DNA of 61,108 nucleotides, the filler included, from Dugesia japonica (taxonomy: Eukaryota): NCBI GenBank assembly GCA_001938525.1. It is 5 parts of 5 records of this genome, joined end to end, with 100 filler letters (N's around TTAATTAATTAA, not from the genome) between each part and the next. Parts side by side here need not be neighbours in the genome. Positions count along the whole stretch, not along the records: positions 16,813 to 27,919 come from MQRL01637862.1; 4 more parts are not named here. One strand, written 5' to 3'. Position 1 is the first letter of the stretch; the number at the start of each line of letters is the position of its first letter. Shown here piece after piece: positions 12,301 to 58,895 of the stretch. A program made the position numbers and the translations under genes. The notes beneath the pieces are model-generated. The model was given only the letters and a program-made list of their open reading frames with translations, was not told where the DNA came from and ran no database searches.

Positions 12301-13105
12301 AAAAAGGTAACTTACGATAAGATGATTTCCCTCCAGCTAAATATTGATACTTTGATAATTCAATTTTAAAATCAACTATGTAATTTAAATTCCATCCACT
12401 TTCATTTCGATCTTCATCTTCCATAAATCTTTGAAGTTGATTTAAAATATCAACAACACCTTCATTAATTTCACTTGCTAATGTAAATTGTTTATTNNNN
12501 NNNNNNNNNNNAAAAACTCTTTCAACATTTTCTCCGTTTATATCTTTATTATAATTACAGTTGACACTCATTTGAACAATAATCTTTTTCCTATAATTGA
12601 AATACTTGGTAATTATTTCTAAGATTTCAGATTGAAATTCATTAATCATTTTTACTGGTCTTTCGAAAGTTTCGAGATTTCTGGTCAATTCAACTTTACT
12701 TTCTTTAAAATATTCGATTTCATAGTTTTTGTATATTCTGAAGATGTCACGAATTTCTGGATCGAAATCAATTACTTCTTCTCCAGGTAATTCTTTAAAT
12801 AATATTTTGTTGACCATTTCTTTGTTTATTTGAATTGAAATATACTTTTGCATGATTTTGTCTTGCAAACATTTTTTGGCAAATTTCACAAAATAATGGA
12901 ACTTTCTCTGAATTACCGCAATTAGTAGCATTCAAATGTTCTGTTAAACCCCTTGTTGATCTAAAGGTGTTTAAACATTTGGGACAAGTAAATATTGCCC
13001 TGTTTAAAAGACAACATTTCGATCTAACATGAGCTGTTAGACCCGATTTTTTTAAAAAACCTTTTTGCAAAGATTATTAGGACAAATTAATTGATTAGTA
13101 GACAT
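9334..13105 (-). pseudogene. Protein-primed family B DNA polymerase with N-terminal zinc fingers, terminal-protein region and EndoVII-like insert
   Basis: Three C2H2/C2HC fingers; ESGW and IENKDDKCF; ExoI IYADFE; DHDHFNGEFRG; ExoII FHNASGYD; ExoIII Y..LDVIILAD; motif A YLDENSFYASCM; motif C YLDTD*; C-terminal SLTGYDDKR; many frameshifts. Confidence 0.96.
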
Positions 13106-16712: not shown

Positions 16713-16812
16713 NNNNNNNNNNNNNNNNNNNNNNNNNNNNNNNNNNNNNNNNNNNNTTAATTAATTAANNNNNNNNNNNNNNNNNNNNNNNNNNNNNNNN
16801 NNNNNNNNNNNN
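16713..16812. other. Artificial scaffold linker
   Basis: Exactly N44-TTAATTAATTAA-N44 (stops in all six frames). Confidence 0.97.
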
Positions 16813-16814
16813 AT

Positions 16815-16950
16815 AAATATAGAGACTCCCCCCATCTCATGCAAAATATAGAGACTCCCTCCATCTCATGCAAAATATAGAGACTCTTACCATCTCATGC
16901 TAAATATTGAGACTCCTCTCATCTCATGCTAAATATAGAGACTTCCCTCG
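16815..16950 (+). repeat. 29-bp minisatellite, about 4.5 copies
   Basis: Unit approximately AATATAGAGACTCCYYCCATCTCATGCWA. Confidence 0.9.
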
Positions 16951-17042
16951 TCCCTTGTGTAATAAATTAATTAAATTTAATTTAATTATATTGAAAAGAT
17001 TTCTCCCGATTGAAATGAAAAAAATTTCCAACCAAAATATTA

Positions 17043-20770: not shown

Positions 20771-21584
20771 GAAGAATTATAAATTTCATACTGATTTGAA
20801 TTTTATTTCTTTTAAGTAATATTGTTAGTTTATTTAATAAATTTTCAATAAATAAATAAATTCGATACATAAATTTTTCCCGGACAATATCCCCCCGGAC
20901 AATTTCCACCGGAAAATTATTTAATTATACACTTGACACAAGCTCTTGCTGGCCACGCATCTCAACCTGGAAGAAAGACTTATTCAGACATAAAGGCTTG
21001 AATCTTCACTGTTGTACAAGACGTTGGAAATCGTAACAAATTGAACTATTTACGTGGCATTGCTCATAATTTAGGGTTTTAAATAGATTTTTGCATGCTT
21101 TCTTTTCTTTTATAAAAAATATAATGTAATACTAGTGTTGGGGTGAAACACCCGGTTTGAGAAGAAAAAGAAGGCCAGATGCCAAATCTGAAAATAATAG
21201 GGAAGGGGGGTCAAAAGGAAAATTTAAAATATAATGACTACAATTAATATAAAGATCAATGGAAAAGAAAAATGGAATGAAAAGTACGAATAAACGAATC
21301 CAACTCTCATCAATTCCAATAATTAAAGGAAATTATTAAAGTATTAATAAAAGATAAGAAAATGATCAGAAAATAATAATTAATTAATGAAGAAAAAGTT
21401 AATAAATTTATTGAAAAAAATAATTAAAATTAGGCAAAAATCAATTTTGGTAGAATATCTCCGCCCAAGAAAATCATGAAGACTAGGAAAAAGACAATAT
21501 GAAAAGCAAAGATTAAGGGGCAATAGGATTGTCTAACAAGAAAATTTCATCATTACCAGGAGATCCCCTACAAAGATTTGAAGT

Positions 21585-21845
21585 AGGAGCCAATAAGGGG
21601 CCAGAAAAGAAAAATAAAACAAAGACCGGAAAATCACATGGTGACTTAAAAATAGACACCAATAGAAGTTCTAAAAATCTTGGAAAAAATCTGAAAATTG
21701 GCACCATCGCCTATGAGAAGCAAGAATTTCAAATTAAAAATAGCAGGCCAATAGCGATGATGCCGGATTGTATCAAAAATGGTATACAAACCCCCCAAAA
21801 TTTAGAAGAAAAAAAGTAAAAAAATTTTCATTTACTCAGTGTAAA
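21585..21845 (+). promoter_or_regulatory. Putative Pol II promoter inside the 4.4-kb element
   Basis: Three CCAAT boxes (about 21590, 21659, 21749), TATA-like GTATACAAA at about 21782 and TCAGT at about 21836; the same CCAAT x3 + TATA layout is in the scaffold D relative. Confidence 0.45.
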
Positions 21846-22061
21846 TCATTGCGTAAAACGTTAACTCCGTTGCATAATACGACTTGTTGTGAACATAATT
21901 TGAGAAACGTTCAACAAAACATAAAAAACTTCAACACTTTCAGTGGTTTATTTATTGCGCGAAATTATTAAATACATTTTTGAAGATAAAAATCGTGACT
22001 TTCGGACCAAAAGGATAAATTATTCTATTTGAATTTTGCACTGTTATTATTCCCGTTGTAG

Positions 22062-22082
22062 CCAAAGGAAAATTATCTAAGA
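22062..22082 (+). other. Putative 21-nt leader mini-exon ending in A
   Basis: TTCCCGTTGTAG|CCAAAGGAAAATTATCTAAGA|GTAAGC. Confidence 0.45.
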
Positions 22083-22719
22083 GTAAGCATGTGTTATTTT
22101 ACTTTGTTTTCTAATTTCACGTAGAAATTTGTTTTATTTTGTAAAATTAATTATCAATAAATTAGTATCCACAATTTCTTTTATTTATTTGATTCACATA
22201 TTAAATGTTAAATGTGCTATTATAATGATTCGACTAACGATTTCCAATAATTTCAACAGGTTCAGATATTTATCGTTTTTCCCTATCTGTAATCGTGCCA
22301 CGAGAACTGCAGCTATAAATAGTTATTAATTAGTAACATCTAGCAGTCAACTCGATCTCGAAATTAACAATGAATCATCAATGAAACTTTATCACCAAAA
22401 TAGATGTTCTATCAAGTCATGTATTTACATACAGCTAAAAAGTAGAAACATCTCAGTTGAAATGCAGTATTTCATTAAGAAGAGACGCACTCACTAATCA
22501 CACATAGAGCTGGAAACATACACACATATTAAGGAATAGTTGAAATAGCCACATAAATTGTTCTTTTGTCATTGTGCCACGAAATAGTCCGAATTATATC
22601 ACTGATGATGCTTATCAATAAAGCGAGCGCTGATTATATTAGATCTTATCTCTAGGCGTTACTGAAAGCAATTTTTAATATCATTATTATATCTTCGGTT
22701 TGAACTATTAATATCCTAA

Positions 22720-22799
22720 ATATCATTATTATTATTATTATTATCATTAAATATTACTATTATCACTACGGATATCTTGTTTGATTTTATTGCTATTAC

Positions 22800-22852
<53 letters not shown>

Positions 22853-23410
22853 TTATTAACATCCTTAGAATATGTATTCTTATTGATTATCATCATTGAT
22901 TAATATTATTATTATATAACCATGTTATTAATATTACCAAGAGTAGTACGATTATGATAATTACTCATTAAAATGAATTATCCACACTCTTTATTCATAA
23001 TATTACCGCTATTTATCATTATCAACATTACTATTATGTCTTTTATTATTAAGGTTATGAGTATTATTCTAATTATTATGGAAATTATTTTAGTGTTATT
23101 CTTCAGTTTTATTATTGGTATTAGAAACACCACAGTTATTTATATTTCTGTTCACTAATATTGTCACTAATACTATTACTTTTACTAACACTATTAATTT
23201 TATGATTATTATTATTATCATTAACTGTTATTAGCAATGGGATCGTCATCAATTGTTATTATTGTTGTTATGGTTAGGATGGATGTGGGTATTATCCTTC
23301 TTATTAATATTCCGAGTAGTGTTTTTATTATTAGTATTCAAAGCACTGCTAGAATCATTCTCTTTAATACTACGAATTATCATTAATCTGACCATTATTT
23401 CTAGTATTGC
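22720..23410 (+). repeat. (ATT)n microsatellite and degenerate ATT-rich tract
   Basis: Pure (ATT)n at 22801-22850 inside a longer degenerate tract. Confidence 0.92.
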
Positions 23411-23535
23411 TAATACACTTTGTGTTCCTAACATCAGCGCATGGTGATTCAATAAGTGTCTTAATTTTTTGCAAGTGTCATCTGTAAATTTGTACATTAA
23501 AAAAATTATGATTTAGGACTCCAATTTTCATTACA

Positions 23536-23706
23536 ATGCCCGCTCTCTTGTTACAAACGTTAAGACTAATTTGTAGAGAGAGACGTAAAGCCTGGCGAAA
23601 GCAACTTTTAGCTCACATTCTCTCCATGGGAGCTATTGAGCATCCCTACGAAACGGATTTGCAGTGTTTCGCGAGATGTTCCCTTTGGAATACCAAGTTA
23701 ATTTAG
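23536..23706 (+). CDS. Cassette 1: 56-aa hypothetical protein
   Basis: ATTTAG acceptor at 23516; MPALLLQTLRLICRERRKAWRKQLLAH...KLI*; AATAAA at 23753. Confidence 0.4.
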   Translation: MPALLLQTLRLICRERRKAWRKQLLAHILSMGAIEHPYETDLQCFARCSLWNTKLI

Positions 23707-23814
23707 ATGACACTGAATAAGTTTTACTAATTTCTCGTAATGTGTTAAATTAAATAAACTTTATATATTTAGCAACTTAATGTCGATGTTTTTTCTTTTA
23801 TTCCAGCATTATAA

Positions 23815-24239
23815 ATGGAATATAAATGGGAGCTGCTTTTAGATCGGCGCACTGGTAGATTAATTTTCAAAAGATATAGGAACCCCCATGACAGAGATGC
23901 TGGGGTGTTGACAGGCTATTCCAATTTAACTATGAAAGAGGCCGATAATGAGTGACAATGGAATGAGGCAGAGCGTCGAGCTTTTTACGAGTGGAACGGC
24001 CCTGATCGAGCGCGAGAGGTGTACCATACCGCTACAGCTTTCCCCCCAATTAACAATGAGGAGATTCGAACCACAAATGAGTGGCGTGACTGTCCTTCTG
24101 TCGTACCAATATCTTCTGCCCACCTGCCCCCTTTCTCCGGTTTAAAAGCGTTGATAAAAACACTCTGTGGGATTTGAGGAATGATGCGAGTGGTGGTGCT
24201 TCTGAAAATGTCACTTCAGAGGACAATACTGAATCTTAG
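23815..24239 (+). pseudogene. Cassette 2: hypothetical protein with one stop and a possible frameshift
   Basis: Strong TTTTTTCTTTTATTCCAG acceptor at 23806; MEYKWELLLDRRTGRLIFKRY...DNE*QWNEAERRAFYEW...; AATAAA at 24280. Confidence 0.45.
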
Positions 24240-24453
24240 TATTGCTGAGTTTATTTTTTTGTGTTGTTTGTTTTGTAGTAATAAATACATATGCGTTTGA
24301 TTAAGTATTAATTAGTTCATTGTTGTTCTCACTCTAACAGCGTAATTCGGTACCTATTAGTTGTCTGTTGGGCATTCAGCTTATGGGATTGACATGAGTT
24401 TCTCATATTTTATTCTTTTAAACATAAACGACCTTATTATTTTGTCTTTTCAG

Positions 24454-24833
24454 TGCATTTTTCCTTAAATCGTTCCGCCGCTTCCACTAAAAAGCTGAGA
24501 GAGACGAGCAAAGACTCCGAAATGACGTGGGACCTCTACCGTCTCGCGAAGCCCCATTGGGAAGCTGACACCGCCTCGACTGAAAGTAAGGTAAGAAGGT
24601 ATAAAAGAAAGTGTGTGGCTTTCTGCAAAGAAATTGAAGCTTTGCATACTCAGGAAAGGCTGTGGAAGAGCCAACTGGAGTCTTTCGCCGAAGTTATCCG
24701 GTCCCTCCATGACCGTGAAAATAAACTGGTAAATTATATTATGGCTTTGAGGAAGGCAATGCTCTTGAGCCGCTTTTGGTTGATAAAGGCACCCAAACCT
24801 CACGGCCGTGACTTTTCAACCCTTCATGTTTAG
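24454..24833 (+). CDS. Cassette 3: ~126-aa coiled-coil protein, terminal exon starting TG
   Basis: TTTTGTCTTTTCAG acceptor ends at 24453; frame is open from TG-CAT to the stop; heptad-like segment. Confidence 0.55.
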
Positions 24834-24949
24834 TGTGTAAATACAAGTCTTCTCGAGTTGTACTGATTTGCTTTACAATAGTTATTAATTGATTGAATTT
24901 TAAAAGTGGTTAATCTCTCTTACATTTTAAAGGTTATTTTATTTTGTAG

Positions 24950-25266
24950 TGCCACAAATTCGTCTCCCCACAAGTCTTCGTAGGTGTCATCGTTTAATAC
25001 AGAAACTCTTACTAGAAAGACATATAAAACGTCGAAACGAGAGGGCCTTACTACGACATTTGACCCAGAGAAACCGCCTGATTAAAAAACTAAACCTCGT
25101 CGTCAAGAAACATGGCGATCTAGCTGAGAAAACAAAGCAGATATTGCAACACAAAATCCATTTCTTGCAAAGCTATATATTGGACTTATCTAGTCAATTA
25201 GAAAACGAGACGTGGATTCGTTTGGACGACAACGATGATGATGCCGCGTTTAATTTTTTTACCTGA
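24950..25266 (+). CDS. Cassette 4: ~105-aa basic coiled-coil protein with acidic tail, terminal exon starting TG
   Basis: TTATTTTATTTTGTAG acceptor ends at 24949; frame is open from TG-CCA; AATAAA at 25323. Confidence 0.55.
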
Positions 25267-26687
25267 AGAGCCTACCCAGTGGTTAGACCCGGGTGCTCTC
25301 GACTATATGTAATTTCAAATCAAATAAATTTTAGTTTTAATGAATTGTTATTTTAAGTGACGAATAACTGTAAAGGGAAAACATTGAACCCGAACCAAAG
25401 GTATAAGTGTGGATACCTCAAAAAAATGTTGGAGGTAAACCCCTCTATACCAAAATCTAAATAGGGACTTTAGATTAAATTCTTGAAAGGGTCACCTGAG
25501 GACTGTCTTTTCCCCAGCCACATTTTTCTAACTCAAACTCAGGTAGGACCCCAACACTAGAATAAACAAACAGCTTTTTCAGTAAAATTTTATTTTTATA
25601 TTTCAATTTTTATAAAGTTCTATTTTAATGTATAATATTTAAAATATTTTACTTTAATATTTATTTCGTCCGTGAAAAATTGTCCTAGAATCATTTTGTT
25701 TATTAAAATTTACTGATAAAATTTTTTTTCGGTTTTAATATTAAAAATAATCATTTAAAATAATTATAACTTGCAATTGAAAAGAAATAATAAAATAATT
25801 TTCCGGGGGATATTGTCCAGGGGAAAATTGTCCTAGAACCAGTTATTTTATTGCAAATTTCGAATTTTCTTCGCAACAAACCTGGAAATTTTCTTGACAC
25901 AGTTTGGACATCACTAATTTAGTTAAATTGTAATTAAACTAAGGAAATTAAAGTATAAACTATATGTTTCTAAAGTATGATCCTCAAAACTTAAAGTATT
26001 CGAATTTTTATTATATAGAAAGTTCTTAAATCCTTTAACTCTAGTTGCTTCTTTTATTTGGAAAATATGTATAAATACCACAATTATAAATACTATAATG
26101 GTATTTGTACAATGCTAAGCAGTTTAGCTTCAATAAGTTGTTTGCTGAGAACGTAAAAATATTTACTGTAAAATTAAACTTGACTTCGAAATAAAAAAAA
26201 GAAATATTAATGAAGTAAATAAATAAAATAAATAAAATAAATTTTTCTTAAATTTTTAATGTTTTTCCTTGAAGAATTTCTGCTATAAATTTAGTAGTTT
26301 CAATAATGTTTACTTGTGCAATAAAAGGATTTACAAAAATTGTAACCACAGGTTTAATAATAGTAAATCGCTTAAAACTACTTTCAAACGGTTCCAAAAG
26401 ATTTTTAAGATGAAGGATAAATAATATTTTCTTTAATTTGAAAATTTAATTGTTTTCATTATTTCAACACTTTCTCGCGGGACAAGGTTGATAATCCCTT
26501 GGTTAGAGTATATAAAATAAAAAATGTTTGTTGAAGTGTACAATAAATAAATCCAATAAATTTCTAGTAAAACCCAAAATCGTTTTTAAGAAATTATTTA
26601 ATTTTAATTTATTCAGATGGAATTTTAAAATATCGTTACTAGAAATGAAAATTAGATCCAGTTTGATAACGTTAACAGGAAATGACA

Positions 26688-27919: not shown

Positions 27920-28019
27920 NNNNNNNNNNNNNNNNNNNNNNNNNNNNNNNNNNNNNNNNNNNNTTAATTAATTAANNNNNNNNNNNNNNNNNNNNNNNNN
28001 NNNNNNNNNNNNNNNNNNN
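27920..28019. other. Artificial scaffold linker
   Basis: N44-TTAATTAATTAA-N44. Confidence 0.97.
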
Positions 28020-32636: not shown

Positions 32637-34850
32637 TGTAAGAATGATTCATAGATTTTAATATCTGAGATATGTTTTCAAAATATTTTATGAATTCATT
32701 ATGCAAAGTAAAATATTTCGTAAAAAATAAAATCGATATTTTTAAAATATTTGATTGATTTCTCAGATTATTTGCTTGATTCCTATATATGAATTACTCT
32801 TCATCATTATATTATTTTAATCAAAAACACTTGAATTAATAAATACAAATTTATGGAGAGTTGTTAGGTTTTGAAATTAATTAATATGGCGACTAACACA
32901 CTTGTTGAATGAAGTATCCCAAAAAATTGCAGTATTACTAATTATATTAAAAGTAGTATAAATAATGATATAAATTAAAGAAAGGAGTAGATGAGTACAA
33001 TGATGTAAAAGAAAAAGTTAACAAGTTTGTTAAGAAATAATTGTTTAGAGGCCAACCAGAGATAATCAATGATATAAATGAAGAAAACGAAAGTGGAATT
33101 CTGACGATAAAAGAGATAAAGCGACAAGATTTAAATTATGACAAGATACAAGGTAGACCAAATATAACGGTTGAAATACAAAACGTAAAAGTTGATTGCT
33201 TGTTAGACACTGGAGCAAGAGTTAATGTTATGAGTTGAGAATTTTAGAAAGATTAGGAAAAGTCAATATATTAAAAAGTAAAGATAGTTTAAGATGTGCC
33301 AATAATAGTCCACTCGAAATAGTAGATACGATAAAGGCAGAAGTGGAAATTTTGAATGAAAGCGAAACAGTTAAGTTCGCTGTGGTGAAACACATACATC
33401 CAGATCTAATAGGGTGAATAGAATTACAGAAACAGTTTAGATTCCAACTGCTGAAAGAGACTAAATGTGATAACAACGAAATTTATCTTTATAATATGAA
33501 AGCAAATTATGAACGCAGTACAACAAATAAAGAGAGAGTACAGATAGCAATAAAAATATTGATTAACAAGCTAAACGAGAATTTGAAGAAAGTTATAATG
33601 ATTTATAAAGTAATATTCATAGCAGACAACTTAGATATTGGCAGAACATCAAATAATCACATATGGAGAACCAATAAATACGAAACTATGGAGACAACCA
33701 ATGTATATAGAGAACAAGATAGATGAAGCTATCATGAATTTGTTTGACAATAACATTATTAGAAAGTGTAATTTGCAATGGAACTTTCCGTTAATATGTG
33801 TTTTGAAAAAAGAAAGAAAAGACGATAAATTATGATTAGATTTTAGAAAATTGAATGCAATCACAGAAAGACAGGCATTTCCGATGCCAAATGTAGAGGA
33901 AATACCAGACAATTTGAGTGGCGCAAGATATTTTAGTACTATTGATTTTGGTAATGAATATTATCAAGTTCCGTTGCATAAAGATTAACAAAAGAAAGCA
34001 GCATTTTCGACGAAAAATGGACAGTATTGTTTCACAAGAATGCCTTTTAGTATATCTGCAGCATCTGGAAAGTTTCAAGAATTAATGACAAAAGTATTCA
34101 GAAAATTGAGAGGAACAATGGTATACATAGATGATATATTGATACTTTCAGAAAAATGTCATTTATTGTGAGCAGAAGTCAAATTTTAGGACATGACATA
34201 GACAAGAATGGAATTCGAAGAAGCTTTTGGGGAACATGAAATTACTATAGACGGTTTATCAATAATTACTTGAAGAAAGCAAGAAGCTTGGGAGAGCTAT
34301 GTAAAAGTAATAATACAAATCTTGTGTTGTCGCAAATTTGTGATAAAGCTTTCAATGAGATGAAAGAGGCATTAATTAAAAAGAATAAAAATTGGACAGA
34401 GTTAATAACAGAGATTGAATATACACTAAATGCAACAATCCATAGGATTTTGAGCATAAGTCCAGCAGAAGTGATATTCGGTAAGAAAATGCATAGAGAA
34501 AGATGGTTCAATAATGGAGAATCCGGAGAGTTGAAATCAACAAAGAGACATTTTCAAGGTAGAAAACAGATCAAAAGACAAAGAAAGAAATACAGGTCTA
34601 TACGAGGTGATAAAACAGATTCATGAAAGACGATACCTGCTGAAGAACTCAGAAGGTAAGATTTTTGAAAGAAATGTGGAAAAGATTTTAAAAATATTTA
34701 AAGATGAGGGATATAAGAATCATTTATATATTTAAATATCTAAGATGTTTTTTTGAAATATTTTATGAAATCATTATGTAAATCTTAAGTTAAATATTTC
34801 GTAAAAAAATCAAATCGATATTTATCAAGTATTTTATGAAATTATTATGT
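32637..34850 (+). mobile_element. Ty3/Gypsy LTR retrotransposon, internally deleted, both LTR starts present
   Basis: 5' LTR from TGTAAGAAT 32637; PBS-like TGGCGAC 32887; protease LLDTGA; RT DFRKLN..YIDD; IN tail; PPT AAGATGAGGGA; 3' LTR copy from 34712. Confidence 0.9.
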
Positions 34851-36129: not shown

Positions 36130-38795
36130 AGATTTATAATACAACAATAACAAAGATATAACATTTCATAGTTCATTTATTATATTTCTATGTATCAAAT
36201 TTATAGTCCAGTAATAATATTTCTTTCTTGATTTACAGATTTCTATCATATACAGTATGATTTAATGAGACAAACTACATTATTGTATTGTAATTGTTAG
36301 TTACAGAAAGACTTTCGGAAAAGTTCATTAAATTCAATAAAATTTTATTTATTAAACGAAATTTCAAATTTTCCAATCTTCAAAAACTTATTTTTAAAAG
36401 CTGAATATTTAAACAAAGTTTTTAAATATTTTAAAAAATTTTTGAAATCATTTATAACATTTTCTACTTCAAACTTTCAATTGTAATTTTCAATTTTTGA
36501 TTCTTACATTCCTCTCGATTAAAATAATTTTTAAAGATTTTCTAAGTTCCTTTCTAGCTCTTTTCCATTTGCATATCGTATACAATATATTCTTTCGTGT
36601 ACCTTCTCCGTGATCTTGTACGGGCCAGCGTATATTTCATTGTCTTTGTTCTAGTTTCTAGTTTTATCAATACTTCGTCTTCCACTTAGAATTGTCTTTT
36701 TGTAAATATTTCTTCCACCGACTCTCTTTTTTCTTGGTTGTCTAACTATTGTTTTCTGTGAATTCTCCTACCGAATATTAATTCTGCTAGTGATATCCCC
36801 AATGTCTTTTGTCTTGTTGCATTTATCATGCATTTGACCTCCGGTATCTTGTTACTCCCATCCTCTTTTCTATCTTTCTTTGCGACAGCGTTAATACGGT
36901 CTCTGATTGTGCGGAATTCTCTCTTTATAATCCCGTTCGTATTGTGACGGTATGAAGTTGAGAAACGTACTTCTATATTCAACAATTCCACCAGATTCTT
37001 GGCGTTTTTCGATTCAAATATTTTACCACTGTCCTCGTGAACTTCTCTCGATGCTCTAAATCTCAGAATCCATTTTTCTATTATCACTTTTTTAATCGTC
37101 TCGTCATCTTGCTTGCTTATTGTCGTTAGGCTTACATATCGACTGTATTGATCTATTATTCCACATATTTATCTTTGTCTGTTCACAGTCTCTAGAAAAG
37201 ACCCACATATTCCCATATATATCTATTCAAATGGATAATTTGCGCTTAATTTTACTGTTNTCTCTTTTATTGCCACAATATTAACTTTGTTCTTTTGGCA
37301 ATCTTCACATTGTATTATCACTTCTGTAATTGTCTTCTACAGTTCTTTCATGTCGTAGTTAGTGATTATGTATCTGATCAATTTCTCTGTTCCTGCATGT
37401 ATAATTATTTTGTATCTCTTTGATCATTTGTATTCTTTTCTCTTTTGGAATCCAAATTTTTCCATCACTTGTTTTCACTATATTACTTTCGATTATATAC
37501 TTTGAATCCTTTCCTTCTTGAATATCTCGTTTGATTAGTTTGATTTCCTTTATTTCCTCTTGCTATTTACATCTCCCTATCTTTATCATCTGATTTGTCT
37601 GTTTTGTTTGCATCTTCCCCATCTTTGGATCTTTATGTTGCATTTGACAGTGTGTACACGTTCCACATTTCATTCTTGAGAGAATATCTGCGTTTACATG
37701 TTTCTCGCCTTGTCTATATATTANTTCTATGTCTAAGCTGCCAATATAATTCATCCATGTCTGAAACTGAGGTGTTATCGGTTTGTTCGTCTTTTTCATG
37801 AATACTATAGTTTTGTGATCTGTCCTCGTTATGAATTTTTCCCATACAAATAATGTTTAAAGTGGTTTCAGACGTAGTAGATTGCTAGTAATTCGTTTTG
37901 TGTGATATAGTTACCCTTCTCGTGTGATGTCATTGGATGTAAGCCGTGAGAAATAACTCTTTCTTTTTCATCGTCATTATTTTGTGATGGAACCGCTTCT
38001 ATTACGTCGAAGTTGGCTTCAGTATCTAAAATAAATGTCTTCTTTATATCAGGTAATCCTAGAAAAGGTGCTTGTTTCATTTCTGAGAAAGCTTTCTCAC
38101 ATCCATCTGACCATATTAACTTAGTCCTGTTGCTTCCACATAATTCTTCTAGGGCTCTTGATTTCTTTAAATAATTTTTGATGAATCTTCTGTAATAATT
38201 GCATATTCCCAGGAAGCTTCTCAGACTCTGATTTAAAAACATTTGAGTTTCTCAGAACTCTTGATAGCTTCGATTTTTATCGGATAATAATAATTTATCC
38301 AATAATAATAATAATTTTAATAATTTCGGATTATTAAAATGAAGAAATAAATTTAAATCAATATTATATCTTTAAATGAGTATAATTCAAAATGTTTTAA
38401 AATTACTTCTTTATCTATTCTGTGACCAAGAAATTTCACTTCTTTGAGTAATAGGCAACATTTTTCTGGAATCACTCGCAGCCCTGCATTTTGAATATTC
38501 TTTAATACTTGATCCAGAGTTATATAATGCTCATTTTAGTCCTTCTGAGAATATCATTGTCATCTATATGCACCATTGCTTTATCTAGACCGTTCAATAC
38601 TTTTCTCATTAGTTCTTGAAATGTTCCTGGATTTTCTGCTATGCCGAATGGCATTTTTGTGAAGCAATATTGTCTATTTTTAGTCAAAATGGCGGTTTTT
38701 CCTTGTGACTCTTTTTCTAACGTTACATAGTAATACGCGTTTCCCAAGTCTATGGTACTGAAATATTTGGCCCCATACAAATTGTCTAACATTTC
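36130..38795 (-). mobile_element. Ty3/Gypsy pol (RT-RNaseH-IN) with start of 3' LTR
   Basis: YFSTIDLGNAY, MPFG, FLGICNYYRRFI, HVNADILSR, IN core, GPY; PPT CGAGAGGAA then TGTAAG at 36508; LTR far end not resolved. Confidence 0.92.
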
Positions 38796-39232: not shown

Positions 39233-39332
39233 NNNNNNNNNNNNNNNNNNNNNNNNNNNNNNNNNNNNNNNNNNNNTTAATTAATTAANNNNNNNNNNNN
39301 NNNNNNNNNNNNNNNNNNNNNNNNNNNNNNNN
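39233..39332. other. Artificial scaffold linker
   Basis: N44-TTAATTAATTAA-N44. Confidence 0.97.
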
Positions 39333-41704: not shown

Positions 41705-44700
41705 TGTAACATCTGTATTTGTTTATTCAAACAAATTAAAACCCATGCTTCAATTGGAAATTATTTTCTAAAAAATTTAATATTTTAGATAAAATCTTAA
41801 TTTAAAATAATTCGAAAATTTAAAGAAATTACAAAACTGTTTTCATTTTTAATTCCTAAATTTTAAAACAAACAATCATTTGCTGTTAAAATATTGTTTT
41901 TTAATTTCCAAAATTTTAAAACAAAATTTTCAATCAAAGGACAAAAATTTCAATTTGCTTTTCAAAACACACTCACATTCCCCTTTTCAAGAATTTTTTT
42001 TGATCTTCTCTACGTTTCTTTCGAGACTTTTTCGTTTGTATCTTCCAGGATGTAATGTCTGTTGTGAACTTTCCTCTTGATCTTATAGGGTCCTTTATAA
42101 TGATCTAGGTTCTTGTTTCTTGTTTCAACTTTCACTAAGACCTCATAACTAACTTTGAATTGTCTTTTGGATAGTATCTCTTTATCTTGCTCTCTGTGTA
42201 CTTTCTAAATATTTGTTTCGTACCTATTTTCTCTGCTTATTCTCTTCCCAAATACGATTTCAGCAGGGCTTTTTCTAATAGTTTTCTGTTTTGTAGTATT
42301 TAAGATAAATTTTTTTATGGCAATACATCCGTCTAATCTGAGGTTTTCCTTTCTTTAAATGTCACATTTATCATATCCCGCATAGTTCTAAACTGTCTCC
42401 CAATCTGTCAAGTATGTTATGATGATATAGATTCAAAGACCTGATGGTAATTCCATGTTTAGCTGCAAATTCTTTCATTGGTTTAGACTCAAATGTTCTT
42501 CCACAATCGACTCTAAATTCTCTGGGACACCCGAATTTTAATATCCACTTCTCCATTATTGCTTTCCGTATGGTATCTTCATCTTATCTTGCCATTGCTA
42601 CCAAGGCTATATACTTACTGCATTGATCTATTATGCCGAGAACATATTTTTTCGGACCTCTTGTCTCCGGCAAAGGTCCACACACATATATAAATATCAG
42701 TTCAAATATTTCGGATGGCTGCATCTTTTTCGTTTCTTCCTTCGTTTTTGTTAACACTTTAGCTTTTTGGCATGTTATACAACTTTGGACAACCTCTTGT
42801 ACTTTGATCCACAAATGTTCCACGTTATATTTATGCTTCATATACGCTGCTACCTTTTCTGCTCCAGCATGACACAAAAGATGGTGTATCCTCATTATAA
42901 CTTCTTCTACTTTATCATCAGGTATCCATATTCCTTCATCATTCTCATTAAAATTGCCTTGTTTTTCTTGAATATCTACTCTATTTAAGATCCTTGTTTT
43001 TAATTTTCCACTTTTGGGATCCTCATGTGACATTAGACATTGTGCTCATGTACCGTATTCATGCCTTGACAACATATCCGCATTTGTATGAAACGATTCT
43101 TTTCTAAATTACAAATTTATATCTAAATTGCTCAAATAATTAATCCAAGTTTGAAACTGTGATGTGATCGGTCCATTGTTGTCCCTTTGATATAGTTCTT
43201 CACCAACCGTGTCTTTACTCGCATCCGTGTTCAAAATAATTTCTCTATTTATATCTGGAAAACATAATATTGGAGACATCATTAATGCTTCTTTCATTCC
43301 ATTAAAAACGTCTTTTAATTCGTTCGCCCATTCTATCTTCTTGTTACTCGGCCCACTAAACAGTTGTTCCAGCAATGTAGCTTTTTCGAATAATCTTTGA
43401 AAGACTTGCTATATTAATTGTAAATTCCGAAAAAGCTTCTCATTTTCTTAACGCATTTTGGTTTACCAAAGTTCTTAATTGCTTCTATTTTAGTTGTGTT
43501 AGGTTTATTTGTTGGTTTCATTTAAATCAATTAAAATAAAACTTTCGATTCAATACTTTATTAAAATACAAAACACTCATTTAGAAAATTATTCTTGCTT
43601 CTGAATGCTTTTTCCCAAAATTGCCTTACGCTATTTTTTATAGTTTATTTAAACAAATTATTAAAAATATTTTTATTTAAATTATGTAAATTATATAAAA
43701 TATAAAATTATTTAAAAATAAAACAATTCAAATTTATTAATAATTTTCAAAATTTTAAATTAAATTTTATATTTACAATAAAGAAATTTTCAATTATAAA
43801 TTTGAATAAAAAGTTTTACATTACGTATTTATATCTAAAATTCTTTTAATTAATTTAAAAAATTTAAACTATTAAGTTCAACAATGAAATTCTAAATTAA
43901 TATTTAAAATTTCTTTTTCATAATTTGCAATTTTACATTTAAAGGAAATTAAAATTTACACTTTTTAAAAATAACTGATAAGTTAGATCTGTTTTGACAC
44001 CTTCTTTACTGATAACATGTCGCGAAAATTTGATCTCCTTCTGCATGAATTGACATTTCTCTGGATTAACTCTTAGACCAACCTTCTTAATTTCTGTCAA
44101 CACTTTATTGACTATTTCATATTGTCGCTCCTTTGTTTCGGTAAATATGAGAATATCGTCTAGATAAACCATCGCTCTTTTAATTTTCCCAATCACTTTA
44201 TTCATTATTTCCTAGAACGTACCTGGTGCTGCTGCAATTCCAAAAGGCATTCTTTTGAAACAAAAATGCCTTTGTTTGGTCAAAAAAGCCGTTTTCTCTT
44301 GAGAATCTTCACTGAGTTCCACCGATGGTATGCATTTTCCAAATCGATTGAGCTAAAATACTGCGTACCTTTCAAAGCATCTAGCATTTTATCCGCATTT
44401 GGCATAGAAGAAGCTTGTCTTTCTGTTATTGCATTGAGCTGCCTAAAGTCTAAGCATAATCGTATATCCTTTTTATCCTTTTTCCAAACGCAGATTAATG
44501 GCGTATTCCATTGAGAATTACACTTCCGGATTATACCGTTATCATACAGGTTCTTGATTGCCTCTTCAATCTTCTCTTCTAGATTTATTGGTTGACGATA
44601 CGGTTTTATGTTTATTGGACCTCCTTTAGTGATTATTCGATGCTTGGTTAAATGTGTGCATCCTATGTCTCATTTATCCGCCATAAATACATTTTCATTA

Positions 44701-44870
44701 TTCTGAATAATCGCAGTTAATCTATGATCTTTGATAATTTCTAGAATCTCTATTGCATGTCTCAATCCTTTGACTGTCTTTATCTGCTTTTCAAACTTTG
44801 CCTCATTGTTGCAAACAAATTTTTCTCGATGATTATTTACCGATATATGTTAGTCTTTTGTTAATTCCTT
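41705..44870 (-). mobile_element. Ty3/Gypsy pol with 3' LTR, containing a ~480-bp insertion (about 43496-43980)
   Basis: RT YLDD, MPFG, IN HHCC (H..LCH..C..C), PPT AAAAGGGGAA next to LTR 41705-41977 (TG...CA). Confidence 0.92.
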
Positions 44871-47837: not shown

Positions 47838-47937
47838 NNNNNNNNNNNNNNNNNNNNNNNNNNNNNNNNNNNNNNNNNNNNTTAATTAATTAANNNNNNN
47901 NNNNNNNNNNNNNNNNNNNNNNNNNNNNNNNNNNNNN
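47838..47937. other. Artificial scaffold linker
   Basis: N44-TTAATTAATTAA-N44. Confidence 0.97.
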
Positions 47938-50912: not shown

Positions 50913-53900
50913 TGAGGAAATAATTATTAATTAATAATCTCACCCAACAGGAATTGAGATATCTAAATATTAATATTTAAGTACTTGTATTTAATAATTA
51001 ATTATCTTATGAAATATAGTTTGTAGTAGTAAAATAAAAAATGTCTAACAATATGAATTAACAATTGAAGATCTACCTAACATGGTGGCAGCGGTAAATA
51101 CTGATTCTTTTAATGAGAGGTTATCACTAAAGATGCTCTGCAGACGAGATGATATTGAGAAATTTATCAAAAGGTGTGAATTGTATTTTGAAGCTAAAAA
51201 CATCACTCATGTGAAACAACAGTAGAGATTAGTCTCTTGTTTGTTAGATGAAGATTTGTTGGAAGAATATGCAAAGACGTTGAAAAAAGTTGAAGATATT
51301 CAGGATCGATTGAGTTTGGCATTTGAGAAAGAGAAAGATGTTATCAAAGATTTTCAAAATTTGATTAACTACAAGCGTGGAAATGAAGAGATTCGAGTTT
51401 ATTTTAAAAATCTAAAAGATATAGTGGAAAGATTATTTACAAATAAAGATTTTACTAAGGTAAAAAGGGTTGCAAAGATGCTAGTATATTGTTCAGATAA
51501 CAAAAAAGTTGAAGAAGAAGTGACTTTGCGGAAACTAGAGAATATAGAAGAAATTGAAGAAACAATGACGTTAGTAGATCGAGTATAGAAAAACCGAGAT
51601 CGATTTGATGCAGTTAGAAGTTACGCGAGAGTAACAAGTTGAAATTATCAGAAACGAGTAAATCATACAGTGAATAGACATGTGGAACAAAGAAAGGTAA
51701 AACAAAATATCGAATGTTGGCCATGTCATAAGATCGTCATACTAAAGCAAGTTGTCTGACAAAAAAGGGGTAGAGTGCTGGAGTTGTAACAATACAGGAC
51801 ATATAAGTCAAGATTGTAAAAATAAAAAACCAACAAGATGTTTTGGTTGTGGAAAGGTTGGCTATAAAAGAAGGTTATGTCAAGAAATGAGGTGTAAACG
51901 ATGTGATAATGGTGGACATAGAGCAGAAGAATACTACACAAATTTGAAAAGGAAACGAACCAATGAGAAATTTATGACTGTAGAAAGATCAGGAAACNNN
52001 NNNNNNNNNNNNNNNNNNNNNNNNNNNNNNNNNNNNNNNNNNNNNNNNNNNNNNNNNNNNNNNNNNNNNNNNNNNNNNNNNNNNNNNNNNNNNNNNNNNN
52101 NNNNNNNNNNNNNNNNNNNNNNNNNNNNNNNNNNNNNNNNNNNNNNNNNNNNNNNNNNNNNNNNNNNNNNNNNNNNNNNNNNNNNNNNNTAGGAAAAGTT
52201 ACAGAAAAAGTATACAGGTTCTTAAAGAGGGAAAATTTTGCGGATGATAGAAAAGTTGAATGAGTTGGAACAGTTGAAGCAGAAAAGACAACAAATATTT
52301 CGTACCATAAATTGCAAGGCAGACCATGTGTGACAGTCGCAATTCAAGGAAATAAAGTCGAATGTCTATTAGATACAGGGGCTTGAATTAACATGATGAA
52401 TTCGAGTTGTTTTAATAAATTACGAGAAGTAAATTTAGAAATGAGTGATGAAAGATTGCGTTGTGCAAGTACACTTGAAATTGTTGGNAAATTTAAAATT
52501 GGAGTGATAATTGATGAAGTTTGCAAAGAGATTACTTTCTTAGTTGCTGAAAGAGTGGCACCAGATCTTATAGGACGAATCGATATGCAGAGAAATTTTG
52601 AATATCAGCTTATGCAAAAGATCTATAGCAAAACGGATGAAAAAGTAGAAAATTACATTTGCAATATTGAAGCCAAATTCGGAAGACAAATTTAAAAAGG
52701 AGAGCGATTGATAAGAGCCTTAAATATTTTAAAGATTAAAGAGGATCAACGGTTATTTAAAATAATTGAAAGTAAAGAAGATGCTTTTATGGCAGATAAA
52801 TGGGATGTAGGATGCACACATCTGACAAGACACAAAATGATCACAAGTGGTGAACCAATCAATGTAAAACCGTACAGACAACCAATGAATTTAGAAGCTT
52901 AAATTGAAGAAGCTATCCAAAACCTTTTCGAGAACAATATTATCAGGAAATGCAACTCTCTATGGAATACCTCATTGATCTGTGTTTGGAAAAAGGAAAA
53001 GAAGGATATAAGAATAGGCTTGGATTTTAGACAATTGAATGCAGTAACAAAACGACAAGCCTTTCCGAAACATGGATAATATTGTTTTAATAGAATACCA
53101 TTTGGCATCGCAGCAGCACCAGGGATATTTCAAGAGATGATGACAAAAGTGGTTGGCGGAATCAATGAAGCCATGGTTTATCTTGATGACATTCTGATAT
53201 TTATGAACAATAAAGATCAACACAATGAAGTAATTGAAAAAGTATTGATGGAAATACTGAAGGCTGGTCTAAGAATTAATCCGGAAAACTGTCAGTTTCT
53301 TCAAAGTGAAATCAAGTTTCTTGGACACATAATTAGCAGGGATGGTGTTAGAACTGATCCATCTAAAATAGAAGCTATAAGAACATTTGGCAAACCTAAC
53401 TGCGTGAAGAAGTTACGAAGTGTTTTGGGAATTTTTAATTATTACAGGAAATTTATAGAAAACTACGCAAGAAAATCAAGGATATTAGATCAGTTGTGTA
53501 GCGGACCAAGCAACCAGAAATTAGAATGGATAGATGAAATAAACGATACTTTTGAGGGTCTGAAAAAATTTCTAATGACTGCACCAATATTGTGTTTTCC
53601 AGACANNNNNNNNNNNNNNNNNNNNNNNNNNNNNNNNNNNNNNNNNNNNNNNNNNNNNNNNNNNNNNNNNNNNNNNNNNNNNNNNNNNNNNNNNNNNNNN
53701 NNNNNNNNNNNNNNNNNNNNNNNNNNNNNNNNNNNNNNNNNNNNNNTTATTGGCTGTTTATTATTTCTGTATGCATATCAAACATTACTTGTACGGTAGA
53801 AGATTTACTCTTAGAACAGATCACAAAGCTCTAACTTTCATTATGACGACAAAGAAACCAATTANNNNNNNNNNNNNNNNNNNNNNNNNNNNNNTGAGCA

Positions 53901-54977
53901 GTTTAGACATGGTTTTGGGATAAAGAAAATGAATTCAACATAGTAATGCAGATATGTTATCTAGACTAAGATGTGAGGTATGTGTACAGTGTCCAATGTC
54001 ACATGAAGATACCAAGAAAGGGATTTTAAAACAAGAATACTGAACATAATCGAAAAGGAAAAAGAAGATCAGTTAAGCATTTCTGAGGAAACAGATTTGA
54101 TCAAGAAAATGAAAATTCCAGATGACAAACTACATGAAAGAATAGAAGAAATACATAAATTATTGTGTCATGCAGGAGTTGAAAAGGTTTACGAATATAT
54201 GAGAAACAAATATATTGCAAAGAATTTGTGGAGCCAATTACAGAAAATAGTTCGTAGTTGTAAAATTTGTCAGAAGATCAAAGTAGTTACAACAGCAACT
54301 AAACAGAAGATAAAGAAATTAGAAGCTAATAATTTGTTTGGAGTGATATTCACAGATATATGTGGGCCAATGCTATAGACAAGGGAACGATAAAAATACA
54401 TTCTTGGAATAATCGACCAGTACAGTAAATATCTAGTTCTTATACCATTGCCTAGACAAGACGAGGAAACAATACGAAAAGCTATTTTTGAAAAGTGGAT
54501 AGTGAGATTAGGATGTCCAAGAGAGATAACATTAGATTGTGGAAAAGCTTTTGAATCCAGAGTTATGACCGAGTTTGCACTGAAGTTAGATATTAAACTT
54601 TGCTTTTCGAGTCCATATCATCATAATCCAAACGGAAAAATTGCGAGACAGTTCAGGACAATTCGAAATTTGATTAATGCAACTATACTATCAAAGAAAT
54701 ATTAAAATACAATAAAATTCCATTTACAGAATGTAATAAATTATATATTTGTAGAAATTAACTTTAATTTTAGTTTTAAATATTTTCTGTTCTATCTGTG
54801 TATATTTTATTTATTAAATACATTGATGCGTTTAAACAATTGATTCTAGAACATTCTTATTGAATTTAATTTAAATTCAATTTAATTTAAATTCAATAAA
54901 ATCAAATTAATGTTGATTTAAATTTTAATTAAAATAATGTTAAAAAACCACAACATTTAATTTACAGAATGTAATAA

Positions 54978-56430: not shown

Positions 56431-58394
56431 GCAAAATAATTAGGTCACTTAATTTTGGATTTAGTATTTAAGAATTCTTTTTGGAATTAAAAAGAGTTAA
56501 ATTTTGAGAAATTAAAATATTTTGGGATAGAATGAAATCATGTGAATTAAAAATTTTGAATTAATTTGATATTGACAAATTGCGAATTTTGAGGTAATTT
56601 TTATTTGCTTTCTTTTACATTGAAGTTTTGATAAATCAACTCCTTAAAAAATTGTATTTGTCACTTATTAGAATTTAATTTTATTTTTGTTGAAATTCAT
56701 TTATTGCTGCTCCTACAAAAGTAGACAAATAGTTAATTGATTATTTATTTATTGAAAGTTTAAAATCACTAAATCCTTGTTGGTACTGTAACTAAACAGC
56801 AGAGATTCAACATTCCATTATATGTATATATAAATTCAGCGATTCCCAAAAATTTTAATCCTTGTTTATTAGGATTTGACTGATGATCCTAAAGGTTAGT
56901 AAGCAATACTAAAACATATTTATCTAAAATTAAATAGTATCGACTTATTACTTAGTACGTCCCCTAAAATCAAATCAATTGTTTAGATTTTTTTGATTTG
57001 TATTAAATTGTATTTAATTGTTATACTTCACAAATTTTTTATTAAATAAACTGTCTTCGTCTTAATTGATATATTGTTATCTATTATATTTATTATTTAT
57101 AATAAATATATAAAACCTACGCGCATTTTTAGTATATTGGAGTCAGAATAAAACCATTGTTAGGTGTCTTTACCTACGAGAATCCAACAAAAGAAGGAGT
57201 CTGTGTGCTTTTCTAGAGATGCAGAGTCACCAGGATGTCTTTGAAAACTAACATGGTACAACCGTAAATTCTCACTGTTTTGACGAAAAGCTTCTAATCA
57301 TGGAGTAACCTATATTGCAGACTCAAAGTATTGGAAACCCAACAATTTTTTTGTTTTAAATTTTAGTTAAACATGTTTAATGATACTCTTTTATGAAACA
57401 AATAATGATACTGAATTATCGAGTGTTGACTCAAAATGTTTTTTATTTGTTAAATATTACTGTGTATGTATTGCATCATATCAGCAAATTGTGATTTTAC
57501 GAAAAATTTCTTTGAAATATTGCGATTAAATATGCATATGCCTTAACTTTTTAAAATTATTTTATTTTCGTTATGCAAATGTTGTTATTATCATTTTAAT
57601 TCTCAAAAATGTTATTGGACATCAAGACTAGTGAATACAATTACTCAAGAATTATACTACCCATGTTATCGAGTTACTCGAAATTTGCCCATTACTAAAG
57701 ATAACCAGGATTTTATCCCTTAGACACCAGAGAAAAACTGTCCAACTTTATTTGGCAATACTTGTTAGGGCTATCTAGTAGCTATTAGTGGAATTTAACA
57801 CCAAAGACAACTACATAATCCCAGAATGTGCTGTTAATTTTTGTTTATTTTAACATAAAATTTATCAATGATGTTGTTAATGTACCCTCGCGAGTATCCT
57901 GCAAAATTCCCGAGTTATCAAGATACCCGGGATTGCATTTCCTATTGAAGACTATTATTATAAAAAGTAGTTTTGTAATTGGTATGATAATTGATAATAC
58001 TAAAATGCTAACAAATTATTTTGGATACCTTAAAAAATAAATTTCACATTAAAAAAATGTAAATATTATTACGCAAAAAGAAATCATATTACCTAATATT
58101 TTATAATGAAAAAATAAAATTAAAATGAAAATATTTTAAAAGTAAAACAATAAATTAAACTGTAGCCTTAACGAAATAAATGTTACTCAATTAATCGATT
58201 ATATTTTACAAAAATATTATATAAATGATGAAAATGTGACAAATATATAAGAAATATTAAGTTGGAATTTTCAATGGAACTAATGTTTTATTAGATCAAA
58301 TAAAAATAATATATGTGTTTGATTTTAAAAAAATAAGGATGAAAATTTTCAAGTTTTAATAAACAAAATTTTAAATAAATTATATTTTAAACTA

Positions 58395-58895
58395 ATGCAG
58401 CCTTTTAATTTTCAAAATTATCAAGGATCGTCTAGCAGTACTTTCAATTTTTCCAAAACCATATCCGATGTTTTCAGTGATACTGAAACTATTAAATGTG
58501 AATATTGTGATAATCTTATAGATAAAAAAGCATCTAAATGTCAAGTTTGTAATTCTTCAATTCATGAAATGCCAAGTAGAAAAGTTTTTGTAAAAAATGA
58601 AACATCCAAAGGATTTAAAGCAGTTCAGATGAGTAATATGGGAAAACAAAACCCATTTAATAAATTGCTAACCAGCAAAAAGGATTGGGAGTGTCATAAT
58701 TGCCACACTATCAATTCGAAAAATGTTTTATATTGTGAAAAATGTTCATGTAAAAAACGCTATTCGAAAATAGAAAGCACCATTCCAATTAAGAAAGCAA
58801 GATTAGATTGTGAGTGGACATGTAGCATGTGTAGTTTTGTAAATAGGAATTCTTATTATAACTGTGAAATTTGTTTCCAAGGTCGGAGTAGTTAA
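58395..58895 (+). CDS. Small RanBP2-type (zf-RanBP) zinc-finger protein, 166 aa
   Basis: Intact ORF; WECHNCHTINSKNVLYCEKC and WTCSMCSFVNRNSYYNCEIC fit W-x-C-x2-C-x3-N-x6-C-x2-C; a third C4 finger CEYC-x10-CQVC. Confidence 0.85.
   Translation: MQPFNFQNYQGSSSSTFNFSKTISDVFSDTETIKCEYCDNLIDKKASKCQVCNSSIHEMPSRKVFVKNETSKGFKAVQMSNMGKQNPFNKLLTSKKDWECHNCHTINSKNVLYCEKCSCKKRYSKIESTIPIKKARLDCEWTCSMCSFVNRNSYYNCEICFQGRSS

Follow-up and report, generated by a model that had tools for sequence, protein, structure and literature searches.

The terminal pattern TGTNR is common to the long terminal repeats (LTRs) of Gypsy retrotransposons and to both groups of Ginger DNA transposons (PMC2836005). Gypsy LTR elements are given target-site duplications of 3-6 bp (PMC10045372), and the Burro elements exceed 30 kb, have copy numbers in the thousands and code for an env-like domain; because the internal part accounts for up to 25 kb of that total, their LTRs must be several kb long (PMC6431247). 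Ginger1 has terminal inverted repeats (TIRs) of 40-270 bp and CCGG/CCGT targets, and Ginger2 has TIRs of 50-180 bp and RTATAY targets (PMC2836005); 6-bp duplications are described for GingerRoot (PMC6839031), and IS481EU comes from parabasalids (PMC10045372). Here we describe a mobile insertion at positions 21136-25556 of a 61,108-nucleotide stretch of Dugesia japonica DNA (assembly GCA_001938525.1; the whole stretch is called the window, and the element lies in its part from MQRL01637862.1). We regard the element as probably the solo LTR of a giant Burro-like Gypsy retrotransposon with a predicted small spliced accessory unit, the best-supported product of which is predicted to be a coiled-coil protein of 103-125 residues encoded by open reading frame 3 (ORF3).

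The element comprises 4421 bases with no N inside and is flanked on both sides by the tetranucleotide CTAG (21132-21135 and 25557-25560). The left junction (21132-21144) reads CTAG-TGTTGGGGT and the right junction (25548-25560) ACCCCAACA-CTAG, so the TG...CA ends and the 4-bp target-site duplication that an earlier note on this DNA had described are both borne out. Inverted 9-bp TG...CA pairs with a 4-bp duplication are not rare by themselves, as the AT-rich window contains six of them; the pair of the element is the only GC-rich one, the other five being nearly all A/T. The 21136-25556 segment is a real mobile insertion, and this is proved because DNA contigs skip exactly the element and one CTAG: contigs of run X1 pass from position 21126 directly to 25552 and those of run X2 from 21130 to 25556, with 4425 bases left out in either case, and an X4 contig departs at 21135 with the letters found after the right duplication. 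The left duplication is thus seen both in the sequence and in the uninterrupted target of DNA contigs, and the right one in the sequence. It is possible that the empty-target contigs represent further copies of the target, which is itself repeated; even so, they fix both boundaries. A second insertion is indicated by one X1 contig, a single case: it enters exactly at 21136, but the flank from which it comes is another one, made only of A and T and without CTAG at its end. The G+C content is 33% in the element vs. 26% outside it, and CpG is at 0.79 of expected (both within the window); this composition, with its weak CpG loss, and the surrounding repeats fit a dugesiid planarian.

The target is a small inverted-repeat DNA transposon (20869-25846, approximately 553 bases without the insertion), recognized by its arms and by its repeats in the DNA runs. 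Its 60-base arms (20869-20928 and 25787-25846) are 82% alike. The two remaining parts (20869-21131 and 25557-25846) have GGACAAT-type arms that are internally repeated, and they include a short remnant that we take to resemble the C-terminus of MULE transposases. Both flanks of the element belong to this transposon, and no internal region adjoins this copy.

At the left end (21136-21180, plus strand), alignment and shuffles revealed a 9-bp perfect inverted repeat with an imperfect extension to about 41-45 bases. Bases 10-45 of the two ends are alike in inverted orientation in 23 of the 39 alignment columns, a value reached by one of 2000 shuffles, and the likeness fades beyond. No direct repeat was found between the two ends, and a structure of the terminal-repeat retrotransposon in miniature (TRIM) type was ruled out on this ground. 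The right part (25340-25556, plus strand) is a U5-like 3′ end common to many relatives, with an 8-bp hairpin near 25452-25475 and the right inverted repeat; folding of the 3′ region as a whole was not above that of shuffles (z -0.34). A sequence closely resembling the left terminus (TGTTGGAGGT) and, after it, the 8-bp hairpin occupy 25427-25475 of the window; they lie 130 bases inward of the right end, within a block common to many relatives.

To describe the family to which the element belongs we used the summed contig depth in four DNA-like runs (X1, X2, X4 and X7), a quantity that is very uneven and is not a copy number. In X2 it peaks at about 3400 over 21556-21719, at 12300 over 24672-24835 and at 2300-3200 over 25164-25491, and in most of the remaining interior, the microsatellite excepted, it is about 1-130, with identical pieces there at a depth of 10-23. 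Across all four runs the depth is in the thousands at three blocks vs. about 10-100 elsewhere. These blocks, namely the CCAAT cluster, the ORF3 core and the 3′ end, are common to very many relatives, with which this copy, a member of a rare subfamily, shares them. The element is therefore repeated and not single-copy, the state that the earlier note had named as fatal to its proposal, and the lack of mobility genes stated there also stands, as no transposase, gag or pol frame was found in the element. Within the 61-kb window there is no second copy, and no contig of the DNA runs spans the whole element. Searches with DNA motifs and loci found it absent from viral, metagenome and prokaryote collections, and no tRNA or Rfam family was found in it.

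ORF3 (24454-24833, plus strand) follows an acceptor at 24453, begins with TG and runs for 125 open codons, with an ATG at 24522 from which a product of 103 amino acids could be read; the product is basic and is predicted to form one long coiled-coil helix. Of the a/d positions of the heptads 14 of 16 are hydrophobic, compared with 7 of 40 positions elsewhere, a pattern not reached in any of 2000 shuffles, and no tandem DNA repeat was found beneath the heptads. In the structure model, residues 21-89 are predicted as a single helix (mean pLDDT 83). The core of the frame (24696-24730) is common to very many relatives, and the loose ends of these relatives on either side of the core contain no stop or frameshift. 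Differences fall on third codon positions in 14 of 23 cases in X1 (P 0.006) and in 9 of 13 in X2 (upstream side only, P 0.009), counts made by eye from loose-end majority letters, which summarize contigs that differ from one another (agreement 0.61-0.73) and lack independence. The earlier note had asked for preserved ORFs, and in this respect the third-position bias among distant relatives speaks for ORF3, whereas ORF2 is interrupted by a stop at codon 47. We found no homologue of ORF3 of near length, none of greater length (0 of 91 candidates), none with HMMER over 1.84 billion representatives and none in viral and prokaryote loci. The matches obtained were weak in PDB (E 0.25-0.46), viral folds (E 8.9) and PHROGs (E 0.024); Atlas matches were unnamed and below the recognition line, and those to Pfam were all below curated cut-offs and typical of coiled coils. 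Judged from its sequence, ORF3 is a credible protein and the one convincing candidate product among the four cassettes.

Upstream, four CCAATAR boxes (21316, 21590, 21659 and 21748) mark a predicted promoter on the plus strand (21316-21755), the middle of which is common to many relatives and coincides with the depth peak at 21556-21719. Four copies of this motif in the first 700 bases were not matched in any of 5000 shuffles, and 0.19 per 700 bases are present elsewhere; the motif was picked post hoc, and plain CCAAT is matched in 78 of 5000 shuffles. Of the CCAAT/TATA-like region noted earlier the CCAAT part was confirmed, but the TATA part was not, as the only TATAAA near the start, at 21248, lies upstream of the CCAAT boxes and there is no canonical TATA. 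The predicted leader exon (21836-22082, plus strand) has TCAGT at 21836 and 21940, which could serve as start sites if, as we presume, it acts as an initiator motif, and the leader lies within an ATG-free span (21782-22088). GTAAGC at 22083 is the better of two good donors, and the exon before it ends in A.

The predicted first intron would include an ATT-type microsatellite and T-rich zone (22721-23250), in which the array itself, already pointed out in the earlier note, occupies 22721-22915 and the T-rich zone extends to about 23250. Work by Grohme in 2018 is reported to have found AT-rich microsatellites in Burro1 LTRs. A T-rich AG precedes each of the four GC-richer blocks. In ORF3 and ORF4 alike an in-frame TG comes after the acceptor, and ORF3 contains a donor of the same phase, at 24586, that could also lead to ORF4. 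AATAAA is present 3′ of cassettes 1, 2 and 4, at 23753, 24280 and 25323; the last of these (25323-25328, plus strand), a predicted poly(A) signal, is followed by a T-rich stretch and lies 229 bases before the end of the element. The promoter-like and poly(A) signals, which are predictions, lie in 5′ and 3′ blocks common to many relatives. Flatworms have trans-spliced leaders ending in AUG; such a leader as the source of the start codon was ruled out, given that phase 0 after the ORF3 acceptor closes after 4 codons.

The G+C content of the four GC-richer blocks is 36-55 per 100 bases vs. 21-34 in the spacers, and two plus-strand frames of at least 100 codons arise in 1.45 of 100 block shuffles. 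The four ORF cassettes listed in the earlier note are therefore present as blocks, while only ORF3 is intact and well supported. ORF1 (23536-23706, plus strand) has 56 codons after a weak acceptor, with AATAAA at 23753, and its coding is unsupported: eight listed differences in relatives divide into 2 synonymous, 5 non-synonymous and 1 stop, and near 23671 this copy differs from most relatives by one base in length. ORF2 (23815-24177, plus strand) has 120 codons, among them the in-frame stop, and lies between a strong acceptor at 23806 and the AATAAA at 24280; Pfam, the only collection searched with it, gave no match. ORF4 (24950-25266, plus strand) has 105 open codons after the acceptor at 24949 and its TG, and has no ATG of its own. 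Its product is predicted to be helical with low confidence, no Atlas match was found, and Pfam matches were only below curated cut-offs and typical of coiled coils; near 25254 a homopolymer differs in length from that in part of the relatives.

Among the readings considered, a solo LTR fits best: it agrees with a perfect repeat that is short, a target without specificity, conservation in blocks and selection on an ORF. Gypsy LTRs in particular agree with the TGTTG...CAACA ends, in which no more than 9 bases are perfectly inverted, and with a duplication of 4 bp. Starting from what is observed, that is the insertion with its boundaries, the repeated nature of the element, the signals and the heptad pattern of ORF3, we infer the following course. 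An integrase would have made the target duplication, and the internal gag-pol part would later have been lost through recombination between two giant LTRs. A CCAAT-driven, ATG-free leader may be spliced to the acceptors of ORF3 and ORF4, and because this leader ends in A and the acceptors begin with TG, the start codon would form at the splice junction (A + TG). ORF1 and ORF2 could each start at an ATG of their own and end at a poly(A) signal closer by. In lineages that replicate, ORF3 would be under selection, and the present copy would have decayed after insertion.

Several observations weigh against the solo LTR and its accessory unit. We saw no paired copy, primer-binding site, polypurine tract or link to gag-pol, with no genome assembly searched, and the imperfect inverted repeat of about 41-45 bases is longer than usual LTR ends. 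Three RNA runs, covered to 6 (X11), 25 (X12) and 25 (X15) in 100, listed no RNA joints on this copy. The reads placed there numbered 51, 197 and 56, respectively, with only a partial fit in 51 of 51, 194 of 197 and 56 of 56, and reads at least 99% alike numbered 0, 7 and 0 (7 of 304). A few X12 reads fall on the CCAAT block and the ORF3 core, and these may come from relatives. The transcription unit of several genes proposed in the earlier note is thereby reduced to its signals, on a copy that is decaying and for which the three RNA runs, each read in part, gave nothing spliced. The choice of acceptors was made with the ORFs already in view, the ORF4 acceptor passed neither scoring cut, and an ATG-free run like that of the leader is found in 40 of 5000 shuffles for the fixed leader and in 436 of 5000 anywhere in the 5′ region. 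The heptad pattern of ORF4 is not significant (276 of 2000 shuffles), and ORF1, ORF2 and ORF4 show no positive coding evidence comparable to that of ORF3. The 16 differences listed among close copies, a subset chosen by the tool, comprise 3 synonymous, 12 non-synonymous and 1 stop. Genes of mobile elements usually show selection between distant lineages and neutral decay in recent copies.

An unlikely explanation, yet the one that survives best beside the solo LTR, is a non-autonomous cut-and-paste element of Ginger type, moved by a transposase related to the Gypsy integrase and carrying orphan genes as cargo between degenerate TIRs. The TGTNR termini and the 4-bp duplication are shared with Ginger1 and Ginger2, an inverted repeat of about 41-45 bases that is equalled in one of 2000 shuffles suits such an element, and a promoter at one end with a poly(A) signal at the other suits any self-contained element. 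GingerRoot elements, moreover, carry gene fragments (PMC6839031). However, the targets differ, being CTAG and one other, unlike site here instead of CCGG/CCGT or RTATAY. The repeat has 9 perfect bases and would come to the lower end of the some 40-270 bp of Ginger1 only with its imperfect part to about 41-45; with identity gone past base 45, it falls short of the 50-180 bp of Ginger2. The Ginger branch of the earlier note therefore disagrees with the targets published for both groups and with the TIR length of Ginger2. There is also no transposase or remnant of one, although a non-autonomous copy need not have it, and coding-type conservation of cargo across distant families would be easier to explain inside an autonomous element.

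It is still less probable that the element is a giant solo LTR in which the GC-rich blocks are regulatory or captured debris without a spliced unit, ORF3 at most having once been coding. Much would agree with such debris: ORF2 is broken, ORF1 unsupported and ORF4 without an ATG, close copies change mostly non-synonymously, and neither spliced reads nor homologues were found. Against debris stand the heptads and third-position bias of ORF3, the rarity in block shuffles of two frames of at least 100 codons, and the T-rich AG before each block. An assembly artefact or a chance pairing of ends is suggested by the many gaps of the window, the six chance-level 9-bp pairs and the lack of a single spanning contig, but this very improbable reading is largely refuted by the empty-target joints, as contigs of independent runs skip exactly the element and one duplication, no N lies inside and identical contig pieces cover the interior.

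Other parts of the window were inspected as well. A decayed Polinton/Maverick-like element (467-12931) holds frames at 2461-3111, 6458-6889 and 10034-12931 (minus strand), which we take, from their motifs, to be integrase-like, cysteine-protease-like and family B polymerase-like, respectively. Decayed fragments of ordinary Gypsy pol are present in both orientations (33000-34626, 36746-38251, 42584-44826 and 51226-54617), which explains the long 70% inverted arms in the window; these fragments show no likeness to ORFs 1, 3 and 4 of the element. The segment 47393-47885 is presumably a mariner-like transposase fragment. A 188-codon frame at 58329-58895 has three CxxC..CxxC zinc-ribbon repeats, for which only weak Pfam matches and no longer homologue were found. 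Four identical linkers (44 N + TTAATTAATTA + 44 N; 16713-16812, 27920-28019, 39233-39332 and 47838-47937) yield false palindromes. Beside a gap there is a 29-base tandem array (16814-16964), and beside N runs a 177-base exact duplication with copies 388 bases apart (7906-8470), possibly an assembly artefact.

If LTRs of this kind carry selected spliced genes, the formation of solo LTRs, with which the history of an element usually closes, would leave gene cassettes that can still be expressed, and annotations that treat such LTRs as non-coding would overlook an orphan protein family. Tentatively, and with the odds against it, the giant LTR might even be a complete multi-gene unit, in which one ATG-less leader is joined to any of several TG-starting exons so that splicing would both create the start codon and determine which gene is used. 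Should start codons be made at junctions in this way, every solo LTR would hold orphan coiled-coil regulators as a cassette that does not depend on gag-pol, and the genome as a whole would have a source of new genes under PIWI control. The reading of the element as an ORF-bearing LTR also gives a direct test of the purpose of long LTRs.

Giant planarian Gypsy elements are already known, and the element resembles Burro1-4 and GYPSM1 of dugesiid planarians in its multi-kb LTR, TG...CA ends, very many copies and accessory coding capacity. The accessory ORFs described for Burro1-4 are, in the accessible text, internal or part of the polyprotein and none lies inside the LTR (PMC6431247), a comparison made by description only; Burro1 is reported to aid stem-cell survival via a captured domain (cited in PMC13465017). 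Accessory genes inside giant planarian LTRs are undescribed in the literature surveyed, as the accessible parts of it, including PMC11410931, PMC13465017, PMC13238120, PMC10954484, PMC6884822 and PMC6238403, gave no description of coding cassettes there, and one may be in print.

A likeness was also seen in the probes of GLT and GLT2, elements that are PIWI-silenced and transcribed on knock-down (PMC8532177). By eye, the GLT2 probe (Table S1 of that paper) has the layout of our element: its AT-rich spacer leads to a T-rich acceptor and TG, after which comes an open frame rich in G and C. In the GLT probe a GC-rich block is preceded by a CCAAT box. The acceptor of GLT2 has a donor about 150 bases in front of it, an arrangement that suits an ordinary short intron equally well, and two 13-base motifs of the element were not present in the GLT/GLT2 probe text (first 400 letters per cell). 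Ogre elements have LTRs of 1.9-6.5 kb, very long as in the case of our element. ORF-bearing LTRs are known from complex retroviruses, with sag in MMTV and an overlap with nef in HIV, and accessory genes are reached there by splicing. Yet the LTRs of retroviruses and Ogre hold one ORF or none, whereas the element described here has as many as four cassettes, with acceptors and poly(A) signals of their own.

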